Assembly (NCBI GenBank): GCA_001784805.1
Contig: MFSE01000006.1
Coordinates: forward strand, 1 to 52,706
Length of the DNA stretch: 52,706 nucleotides
DNA from: Candidatus Moranbacteria bacterium RIFOXYA12_FULL_35_19
GTDB taxonomy: Bacteria; Patescibacteriota; Minisyncoccia; Moranbacterales; UBA2206
Direction of reading: 5' to 3'
Shown in pieces: positions 11,194 through 52,706 of the stretch. Position numbers and translations under genes: made by a program. Each line of letters opens with the position of its first letter. The stretch's first letter is position 1. The notes beneath the pieces were generated by a model. It ran no database searches. It was not told the origin of the DNA and worked only from the letters and a program-made list of their open reading frames with translations.

Positions 11194-11534
11194 ATATATC
11201 AAGGCAAATCTATAAGCCGGATTCTGTCGTGATCAATAATTTATCTAGCCCCGACGTTACCGTCGGGGTCAAGCGGCATTTCTTGTTCTTACTAGTGTAG
11301 AACAAGACACAGCCTTGCTCCCAGGTAAGGATTTAGCCGTTTCACCCCAATATTACTATTGGATTCGCCCCGCCTTTTCAAGCGGGGTGCTCAACCTTTC
11401 GGTTTCGCACGTCTCTGCTCGCACCTCTTGGATTGCTCCAGACGGGTATTACCCGCTACCATTTTCTATGTGGAGTCCGGACTTTCCTCCCCGACTTTTC
11501 GTCGAGGTAATTGACCAATTTGCCTTGATATATA
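11194..11534 (-). ncRNA. rnpB: RNase P RNA
   Basis: Minus strand has GAGGAAAGTCCGGACTCC and ACAGAATCCGGCTTAT; long P1 stem from the termini (tatatcaaggcaaat/atttgccttgatata); ends approximate. Confidence 0.95.
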
Positions 11535-51349: not shown

Positions 51350-51438
51350 ACGACTTCACCCTTATCATCGATCCCACCCTGGCCCCCGATTTAATTCGGA
51401 GTCTTCCGGTGTTACCGACTCTCTTGGTGTGACGGGCG

Positions 51439-52344
51439 ATTATCTATCTAAAACTAGACATTGATGTTCCCATCGTGCCTGCGGATTTCCCGCACACGAC
51501 GAGCTCTAATGCATTTTTTGCTTAAGGGCATAAATTTTTCTAAGCCCAGATTCTTTAAAATGATAATTTTTCATAACCAGTTTAATAATTCTGCAAAAAA
51601 TTTCAAAGTCACCTTTCTTCGAGCGTAATCTCAAAGAATTCCTTTTAAAAAATGGAATAATAATTTTTTCCAAATCATTTCTATTGGCTACTTCAAAACG
51701 ATAACAATCTTGATGATTTTTTCGCTTATCTGGTTGAAAGTAAACATTGCCACAACCAAAATATTTTTTAAGCTTATACAGAATTTTTTTATCTTTCGCT
51801 ATAAGTTTCAAATAAAATCTTGGTTCGACTTTTGTTCGTCTTTTAACTTCCTTCTTAGAATCAGGATTTTTTACATAAACTGTAAAGCTTCCTTCTCCAT
51901 CGACTAAGCCAACAATATAATTTGGATTTATTTTTTCCATATGCTATTGAGTGAATCCTTCTCCCGTCCCGCTTAGCGGGACAGAATACTATGATTCAGC
52001 TGACTTCTTACGCTGCGTAAGTTTCGTTATTACAATTTTATTATAACATAAAATTGAAACAGCGCAAGATCTCCTAGGGTTATTTAATATTCTTTTCTTT
52101 ACATTCCAGTAAGTCTTTTGCATGCCTGCCTCGTCGGCAGACGGGCATCTTCCCTATGCTCACCACCTGTTCAAAGGTCGATGCGACTTTCCCGATATAT
52201 CGGGATAAACTGGACTGTAATTTGCCTTCAGATCCTTCACCGTCATTCTCGCGAATGACGACTACCTGTTAGCTACGCTCCGATTGGGTTTCGGAGGGAG
52301 AGATTTAAACTCTCTAGATTATTAAACTGCCTAGCGCTTTTATT
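51439..52344 (-). mobile_element. Group II-like intron in 16S rRNA between the C1399 and C1400 equivalents
   Basis: Splits GTACTCAC|CGCCCGTC; ends in AT; domain-V-like hairpin CGTCGTGTGCGGGAAATCCGCAGGCACGATG at 51471-51501; no U|..G group I ends. Confidence 0.8.
51506..51940 (-). CDS. Single-motif LAGLIDADG homing endonuclease
   Basis: YIVGLVDGEGSF..YFGCG..IIPFF..KKGDFEIF; stops just before domain V. Confidence 0.93.
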   Translation of the reverse strand: MEKINPNYIVGLVDGEGSFTVYVKNPDSKKEVKRRTKVEPRFYLKLIAKDKKILYKLKKYFGCGNVYFQPDKRKNHQDCYRFEVANRNDLEKIIIPFFKRNSLRLRSKKGDFEIFCRIIKLVMKNYHFKESGLRKIYALKQKMH

Positions 52345-52571
52345 GTGAGTACAAGATCCGAGAACGTATTCACCGTGATATGGCTGATTCACGATTACTA
52401 GTGATTCCGGCTTCATGAGGTCGAGTTGCAGACCTCAATCCGAACTGAGACCATCTTTATGGGATTAGCTCCGCCTTACGGCTTAGCAACCCTTTGTAAT
52501 GGCCATTGTAGCACGTGTGTAGCCCAGGGCGTCAAAGGGCCACGCTGATCTGACGTCATCCCCGCCTTCCT

Positions 52572-52692: not shown

Positions 52693-52706
52693 CAGTCTCG
52701 TGTGAC

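Follow-up and report, generated by a model that had tools for sequence, protein, structure and literature searches.

An insertion in the 16S ribosomal RNA (rRNA) gene of Candidatus Moranbacteria bacterium RIFOXYA12_FULL_35_19 is described here, and its reading as a group II intron is well supported by the covariation of its predicted helices. It lies in a stretch of 52,706 nucleotides (nt) from contig MFSE01000006.1 of assembly GCA_001784805.1, referred to throughout as the window, and comprises 906 nt, from A52344 to U51439 on the minus strand (all features below are on that strand unless indicated otherwise). We consider it probable that this is an intron of class 16IS9 with a IIC-like core, seated between 16S positions 1399 and 1400 in a member of the Candidate Phyla Radiation (CPR), that it splices by hydrolysis and spreads by DNA homing, and that its catalytic triad is co-adapted with the domain V bulge. 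Read directly are domains I–VI, an intact LAGLIDADG_1 gene, a domain V geometry of the catalytic type, AGC in junction 2/3 (J2/3) and the complementarity of a GUGAG to the exon end.

The 3' part of the 16S rRNA gene occupies the last 2.2 kb of the window, with Rfam RF00177 matching the flanks of the intron (201.6 bits at 52706–52293; 41.5 bits at 51435–51349) and the anti-Shine-Dalgarno end of the gene at about 50470; the gene is split by three insertions, of which the group II element is the middle one. The 5' exon ends ...GUACUCAC (longer reading ...CUUGUACUCAC) at 52345, the intron opens with AAUAAAAGCGCU at 52344 and closes with ...GAUAAU at 51439, and the 3' exon restarts with CGCCCGUCACACC at 51438. 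Removal of the insert in silico brings the universal 1392–1407 region back at its normal length, which places the junction at 1399|1400 of the Escherichia coli 16S gene (junction positions, including 1396, follow the E. coli numbering). An earlier note, made from the letters of this DNA, had given the same start, the AU end, the hairpins, the GUGAG and the coordinates, and all of these are correct when read on the minus strand.

When an alignment of the endonuclease was run once against species-representative genomes, it matched 333 stretches, 278 of which encode a relative; the best 80 of the 278 were examined, and counts out of 81 refer to these plus the window. Both exon patterns were found in 68/81 sequences, the window included; the other 13 are mostly changed only farther upstream (CCTGTACTCAC or CCTGCACTCAC) or broken by a contig end. 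With a looser pattern, a 5' junction of ...ACTCAC followed by the intron 5' motif was found in 77/81; the four missed are L030 (its contig begins within the intron), L047 (short upstream sequence, junction read otherwise), L028 and L056. As far as flank is available, each of the 80 related loci has this element in an identical position of its 16S gene; the whole-intron limits drawn from the small-subunit flanks agree with the junctions in relatives, and the recurrence of the element at one 16S site together with the covariation of its helices is far above chance. Among these best 80 of 278, loci are spread over many CPR lineages, and the nearest introns are in metagenome-assembled genomes of Parcubacteria and Moranbacteria. 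Five loci are filed outside the CPR (L011, L023, L047, L025 and L062; three as Gammaproteobacteria, two as Spirochaetota); L023, L025 and L047 stand on contigs shorter than 10 kb, so that mis-binning of rRNA contigs seems likely. Two alignments were used: A3, 63 introns with 12 nt of exon in front, ending where the open reading frame (ORF) begins, without L008, L016, L035, L045 and L074 (mostly large insertions or near-identity); and A2, the 3' parts of 63 introns, without the insertion-bearing L035, L049, L055, L074 and L077 and with L036 mended for an assembly gap.

The claim of the earlier note that this is a group II intron is borne out by six domains whose helices covary across the related introns. 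RNAalifold predicted 81 pairs in domains I–III of the 63 introns in A3, with compensatory change in 62 of them. Domain I (52074–52334) comprises helices I(i), I(ii), IA, IB, IC and ID, delimited by the RNAalifold compensatory changes and a weak RF02001 match; its IC arm is capped by a GNRA loop, GCGA, and has no IC2. Domain II follows at 52007–52068 (A3 columns 316–326/423–433 covary). J2/3, AAGUCAGCU, is single-stranded at 51998–52006 and invariant or nearly so in A3; it includes AGC, like A287-G288-C289 of the Oceanobacillus iheyensis intron (numbering according to PMC7275048). Domain III (51953–51997), with the internal loop AUAGUA/GAAGG, is placed by RF01998 and by a covarying basal helix. 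Domain IV (51504–51951) holds the ORF in its loop and is closed by a basal helix of CUC (51951–51949) with GAG (51506–51504), for which three compensatory cases were found by eye in A2 and A3: L024 CCC/GGG, L050 UUU/GAA and L060 UCC/GGA.

Covariance models for group II domains, which the earlier note had put forward as a check, answered in part. RF02001 (D1-D4-3) matches at 52258–52178 with 19.2 bits (E = 0.5) and RF01998 (D1-D4-1) at 52041–51955 with 31.9 bits (gathering threshold 35; E = 0.0023), both sub-threshold and in the correct order within the intron; RF01998 is at or above gathering in 5/20 relatives (35.0–42.3 bits), the nearest relative, L001, among them; the model for domains V–VI found nothing, as is weighed below.

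At 906 nt the window intron is longer than most relatives (about 830–880 nt) owing to two added domain I hairpins, one at 52128–52100, common to the window and L007 only, and one at 52205–52190, also present in L007 and, in another sequence form, in about 12 other relatives (A3).

Domain V (51469–51503, C51503 paired with G51469) was drawn from covariation and from the minimum-energy fold. Its lower helix has 10 base pairs (bp): two outer pairs, the triad pairs C51501-G51471, G51500·U51472 and U51499-A51473, and five more pairs up to U51494·G51478. Above it come a bulge of A51480 and G51479, four upper pairs and the loop GAAAU (51489–51485). The same hairpin is the minimum-energy fold of the last 68 nt of the intron (–25.4 kcal/mol, z = –4.13, with 0/200 shuffles as good). 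When the structure drawn by us for domains V and VI is applied to A2, 97.8% of cells are paired and double changes occur in 15/22 pairs; none of 500 shuffles reached those values, and slid controls gave 30–52% paired. For the domain V helix by itself the figures are 99.5% paired and double changes in 7/14 pairs. Domain V measures 33 nt with a 4-bp upper helix and a pentaloop, where PMC13190283 gives 34 nt for most families; every one of the 63 rows of A2 has the pentaloop GAAAU, and in L056 and L076 it reads GAAAA.

The triad and the bulge vary together. The first C of the triad and the G·U wobble are constant in 62/62 distinct rows of A2, and the third pair is C-G in 39 of them and U-A in 23. 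A pattern covering triad and bulge parsed 77/81 sequences, with CGU in 25/77 and CGC in 52/77. Every U-A third pair is accompanied by the bulge AG (25/25), and every C-G third pair by a bulge ending in a pyrimidine (52/52: AC 13, UC 12, CC 11, AU 9, CU 7); the four unparsed sequences, which bear insertions, combine C-G with UC, AC, AC and AU. On a tree built from the intron without domains V and VI, the triad state changed about 4 times, at least 3 of these changes being forced by well-supported branches, and the bulge followed each time. The third triad pair lies six pairs below the bulge, which is the position found in the O. iheyensis intron (derived from the residue numbers in PMC7275048). 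There the second bulge nucleotide, C377, pairs with C360 of the triad in the catalytic triple helix, and a C377G mutant is tenfold slower in the first step and defective in the second (both according to PMC3669008 and PMC7275048). A natural G at the bulge, found only beside U-A, has the look that would be expected of a compensated triple. As AG always goes with the U-A pair, the two anomalies listed separately in the earlier note, a CGU triad and an AG bulge, amount to one linked change: both are present and domain V is unusual, as that note had said, and its "changed triad" is better described as a compensated CGC variant of class IIC. We infer that, in the third layer of the catalytic triple helix, CGU and AG changed together as one co-adapted unit.

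In L035, L049, L055, L074 and L077, 47–95 nt (two hairpins) are inserted at one bond of the domain V 3' strand, which links the partner of the second triad nucleotide to that of the first. L035 has an insert dissimilar to the other four, suggesting that insertion happened twice independently; in L049 the domain V loop is altered as well.

The 5' end of the intron is ordered in two parts. Canonical introns have GUGCG directly ahead of helix I(i). A search of the 5' boundary for GUGYG was negative in the window, where the intron opens AAUAA-AAGCG and only GCG is conserved. Since AAGCG (52335–52339) lies directly 5' of helix I(i), in the place of GUGYG, it is read as the GUGYG equivalent with G1 lost, and AAUAA (52340–52344) as a 5'-terminal linker. 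The linker is A-rich and 5–7 nt long, and varies in length and sequence among relatives (CAAUAA, AGAUAA, CUAAAA, CACGAAA and others, after an invariant exon); after it the relatives have N-N-GCG, mostly A followed by A, C or U, with GCG(C) invariant in A3 and the covarying helix I(i) following at once. The non-GUGYG start noticed earlier stands, and proves to be ordered, with AAGCG after a linker of 5 nt.

The exon end ACTCAC is unchanged in 77/77 relatives with a readable junction; its last five nucleotides, CUCAC (52345–52349; 16S 1395–1399, with U at 1396), are the candidate intron-binding site 1 (IBS1). The ID hairpin (52152–52177; A3 stem columns 197–202/227–232 covary) has a loop of 13 nt, at whose 3' end stands their complement, GUGAG (52159–52163), by this position and complementarity a plausible exon-binding site 1 (EBS1), in agreement with the earlier proposal. 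The sequence GGUGAG is unchanged in 63/63 introns of A3, and G52164, just 5' of GUGAG, could pair with the first C of the 3' exon. The U at 16S 1396 (window 52348), which would pair with the A of EBS1, is present in every intron-bearing allele read (77/77), whereas the exons of family rns-1396 have A (...UUGUACA|CACC; Table S4 of PMC13190283); if intron-less CPR 16S genes have A at this position, U1396 could be a mark carried along with the intron. For a second exon-binding site (EBS2), no partner was found that consistently matches the variable exon positions –6 to –12. One candidate, the GAAGAU that follows the EBS1 hairpin, can be paired with AUCUU in the window but was rejected, as it does not track exon changes in relatives.

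Domain VI (51442–51465) was delimited by covariation and has three basal bp, an AA bulge on the 5' strand, a helix of 5–6 bp and a loop; the last hairpin, UGUCUA-GUUU-UAGAUA, lies at 51460–51445, and double changes occur in 8/8 counted pairs. J5/6 is AAC in 60/63 rows. A bulged branch A was sought on the 3' strand of domain VI and none was found, every nucleotide of that strand being paired in the window; the absence of a bulged branch adenosine from the last hairpin, as reported before, is thereby upheld, and position –7 covaries. Two candidates for a branch point were rejected: A51445 (position –7), which is paired and covaries (A-U in 40 rows, G-C in 20); and an A at –6, which is not conserved: 20/62 relatives have it as a mismatch opposite C, and the window has G, paired, in its place. 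The 3' tail AAU (51439–51441) has U as its last nucleotide in 63/63, the candidate for gamma-prime; the 3' boundary AY is present, as AU in the window, with the penultimate A in 42/63.

The domain IV ORF (51506–51940) encodes a protein of 144 amino acids (aa) with a single LAGLIDADG_1 motif, and its UAG stop overlaps the domain IV basal helix. It matches Pfam LAGLIDADG_1 (PF00961) with E = 2.7e-18 over profile positions 1–101 of 102, and is the sole ORF of at least 60 aa on the strand of the intron (the opposite strand has one of 65 aa, 51710–51907); the intron carries, as the first reading of this DNA had it, a LAGLIDADG gene and not one for a reverse transcriptase. The motif, in single copy, reads YIVGLVDGEGSF. 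Homologs number 1160 at E <= 0.001, those with names being from Moranbacteria, Parcubacteria and Peregrinibacteria; residues D14, G15, E16 and G17 of the motif are unchanged in 29/29 aligned (29 of the 120 homologs listed). The best PDB matches (about 3e-29, residues 3–143) are to either half of I-SmaMI/I-OnuI-type enzymes, which have two motifs and stem from fungal mitochondria. The 68 introns with both ends all contain an ORF of 132 aa or more.

From this anatomy the following course may be proposed. The pre-rRNA would fold and EBS1 would hold the 5' exon. Water instead of a branch adenosine would attack the 5' splice site, because there is no bulged A, the first nucleotide is A and not G, and 5 extra nt precede the GUGYG equivalent. 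The freed 5' exon would attack the 3' splice site after ...AAU, joining CUCAC to CGCCCG and releasing a linear intron; the ligated exons would read ...GUACUCAC-CGCCCGUC. The endonuclease, presumably as a homodimer, would cut intron-less 16S alleles, and repair would copy the intron in. Hydrolytic splicing and spread by DNA homing are both probable.

Branching or circle splicing with a non-canonical nucleophile, either the AA of domain VI (51462–51461; A2 columns 57–58) or the A at –3, is unlikely, and is the strongest of the alternatives. The AA is kept in 60/63 and the A at –3 in 61/63; a lariat has been demonstrated for one LAGLIDADG group II intron and circularisation for some introns, according to PMC13190283. 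Yet the AA sits on the strand opposite the usual branch site, and the 5' nucleotide is A rather than G and is separated from the GUGYG equivalent by a linker, which in fungal rRNA introns goes together with lost branching (as described in PMC4424553).

Slightly less likely again is a ribozyme that is not autonomous, with the endonuclease as maturase or with a host factor, or an insertion excised by RNase without ligation, which would leave a fragmented 16S rRNA. The domain V that is one nucleotide short and has a pentaloop, the lack of an RF00029 match and the insertions in domain V of some relatives would suit such a reading, and RNase III-cleaved intervening sequences are raised as an option for some CPR insertions in PMC11270868. 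However, compensatory change has preserved all six domains and the catalytic positions in many CPR lineages, which is expected only if the fold is in use; the insertions are removed from transcripts, according to the summary of Brown et al. 2015 in PMC11270868; and the insertion falls in the decoding region, so that helix 44 would be detached by a break there. A group I intron, or a non-intron insertion merely bearing a homing endonuclease gene, is very improbable: LAGLIDADG genes mostly reside in group I introns, and the insertion next to it, at about 1495, is probably one of these, but no Rfam group I model matches the element at E <= 10, and its covarying helices, domain V hairpin, J2/3 and domain III internal loop are of group II type.

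Several points weigh against the intron with a IIC-like core, hydrolytic splicing and a co-adapted triad that is preferred here. RF00029, the model for domains V–VI, has no match in the window at E <= 10 and none in 20 relatives, likely because domain V has 33 nt and domain VI is non-canonical; the RF01998 score of the window is under its gathering threshold; and the IIC-like label goes by general features of that class. The triad and the bulge form only 3 independent pairs on well-supported branches (sign test p = 0.25), and they lie within 20 nt of each other, so that inheritance or recombination of the 35-nt hairpin as a block could give an equal pattern. For a strictly canonical catalytic helix, inserts of 47–95 nt beside the triad are hard to explain. 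Among the relatives found, neither EBS1 nor IBS1 varies, which puts their pairing beyond the reach of covariation and leaves complementarity and position to speak for it. The conserved AA bulge of domain VI could be the non-canonical nucleophile considered above.

Introns of this kind are already in print. In 16S genes of the CPR, 53 group-II-like insertions were found by Rfam searches, all at position 1400, and were designated class 16IS9; 39 of them have LAGLIDADG genes, predominantly LAGLIDADG_1, and none has a reverse transcriptase; DNA homing was proposed for their spread (PMC11270868, Tsurumaki et al. 2024). According to the same source such insertions were first seen by Brown et al. 2015, and the enzyme tested there, I-ShaI, comes from a 23S group I intron. 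The window intron belongs to 16IS9: it has the junction 1399|1400, the same gene and CPR host radiation, a LAGLIDADG_1 ORF without reverse transcriptase, and weak Rfam matches to group II. The main text of PMC11270868 contains no analysis of secondary structure, splice sites or domains V and VI for 16IS9. In a literature search for CPR, group II and LAGLIDADG, PMC11270868 was the only source with both group II and LAGLIDADG terms, and no description of the odd anatomical details of the 1400 introns was found in the literature searched.

A survey of 753 LAGLIDADG group II introns distinguished 13 families, with rns-1396 alone named in bacteria (PMC13190283, Liu et al. 2026); its text has 0 occurrences of CPR and its Table S4 one Saccharimonadota entry. 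According to this source, rns-1396 (a group IIC-LHE family of Thiomargarita and other Thiotrichaceae) has a linker in all members, and in many IIB1 families the linker is tied to the loss of the branch A. Like rns-1396, the window intron lies in a bacterial 16S rRNA gene, has a single-motif gene in domain IV, a domain I that is reduced and a 5' linker, lacks EBS2 and IC2, and has a IIC-like core. The rns-1396 family of Thiomargarita is reportedly due to Salman et al. 2012. Membership of this family was ruled out by insertion site and EBS1: the rns-1396 site is three nt upstream, at 1396|1397, ...CUUGUACA|CACCGC (...GUACA|CACCGC), with an EBS1 matching GUACA (Table S4 of PMC13190283), whereas the window intron has ...GUACUCAC|CGCCCG and an EBS1 of GUGAG.

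In fungal mitochondrial rRNA introns of type IIB1 the splice site is 1–33 nt upstream of GUGYG (Li et al. 2011, as cited in PMC4424553), and in C.te.I1 of Clostridium tetani it is 8 nt upstream; both the fungal introns and C.te.I1 have lost EBS2 and the branch site (PMC4424553). The fungal introns share with the window intron the 5' extension, the lack of branch site and EBS2, the seat in rRNA genes and, for the most part, a LAGLIDADG gene; unlike it they are mitochondrial, have a IIB1 core and mostly encode double-motif endonucleases, and C.te.I1 lies outside rRNA genes. The triad of the fungal IIB1 introns is of AGC type. The O. iheyensis IIC intron agrees with the window intron in a CG(C/U) triad whose middle pair is G·U, in a bulge of 2 nt six pairs higher up and in the AGC of J2/3; it differs in its canonical 5' end, its branch A406 and its AC bulge, where the window intron has a natural G, found only beside U-A. 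A hydrolytic first step is made by the O. iheyensis intron in vitro; for the window intron we infer it.

More tentatively, and in our estimate somewhat short of an even chance, the CPR 1400 introns may form a separate and very large bacterial group II family that has abandoned branching, splices rRNA by hydrolysis in vivo, shows a three-way covariation of triad and bulge and tolerates inserts of 47–95 nt. If true, this would overturn the picture in PMC13190283 of LAGLIDADG group II introns as almost confined to mitochondria. The anatomy across the family, chiefly the covariation of triad and bulge, and the family size (278 relatives from one scan) may be new to specialists. For evolution, the family shows endonuclease-bearing group II introns to be common in at least one bacterial radiation, and provides in bacteria a counterpart of the mitochondrial rRNA introns that have a 5' extension and no branch point. 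For RNA biology, the relatives are a source of dozens of natural variants on a small group II core without branching, among them an apparently compensated third layer of the catalytic triplex. For 16S annotation, exact junctions help, as intron-bearing CPR genes are easily mis-assembled, mis-binned or missed by primers near 1392–1406.

The same 16S gene carries a second long insertion, of about 836 nt (51349–50514), at about E. coli 1495, between AAGUCGU and AACAAGG. Its ORF (51230–50592) encodes a 212-aa double-motif LAGLIDADG_2 protein (Pfam E = 9.1e-39). The position fits the 16IS10 site, called group I in PMC11270868, and the insertion is probably of group I type; no Rfam group I match was found in it at E <= 10. 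The third insertion, 109 nt without an ORF (52685–52577), lies inside a 16S helix near model position 1160 and consists of two perfect hairpins with A+U-rich sequence between them, and could represent a cleaved intervening sequence or an expansion segment. Elsewhere in the window, an RNase P RNA of bacterial class A was found at 11197–11526 on the minus strand (158.3 bits).

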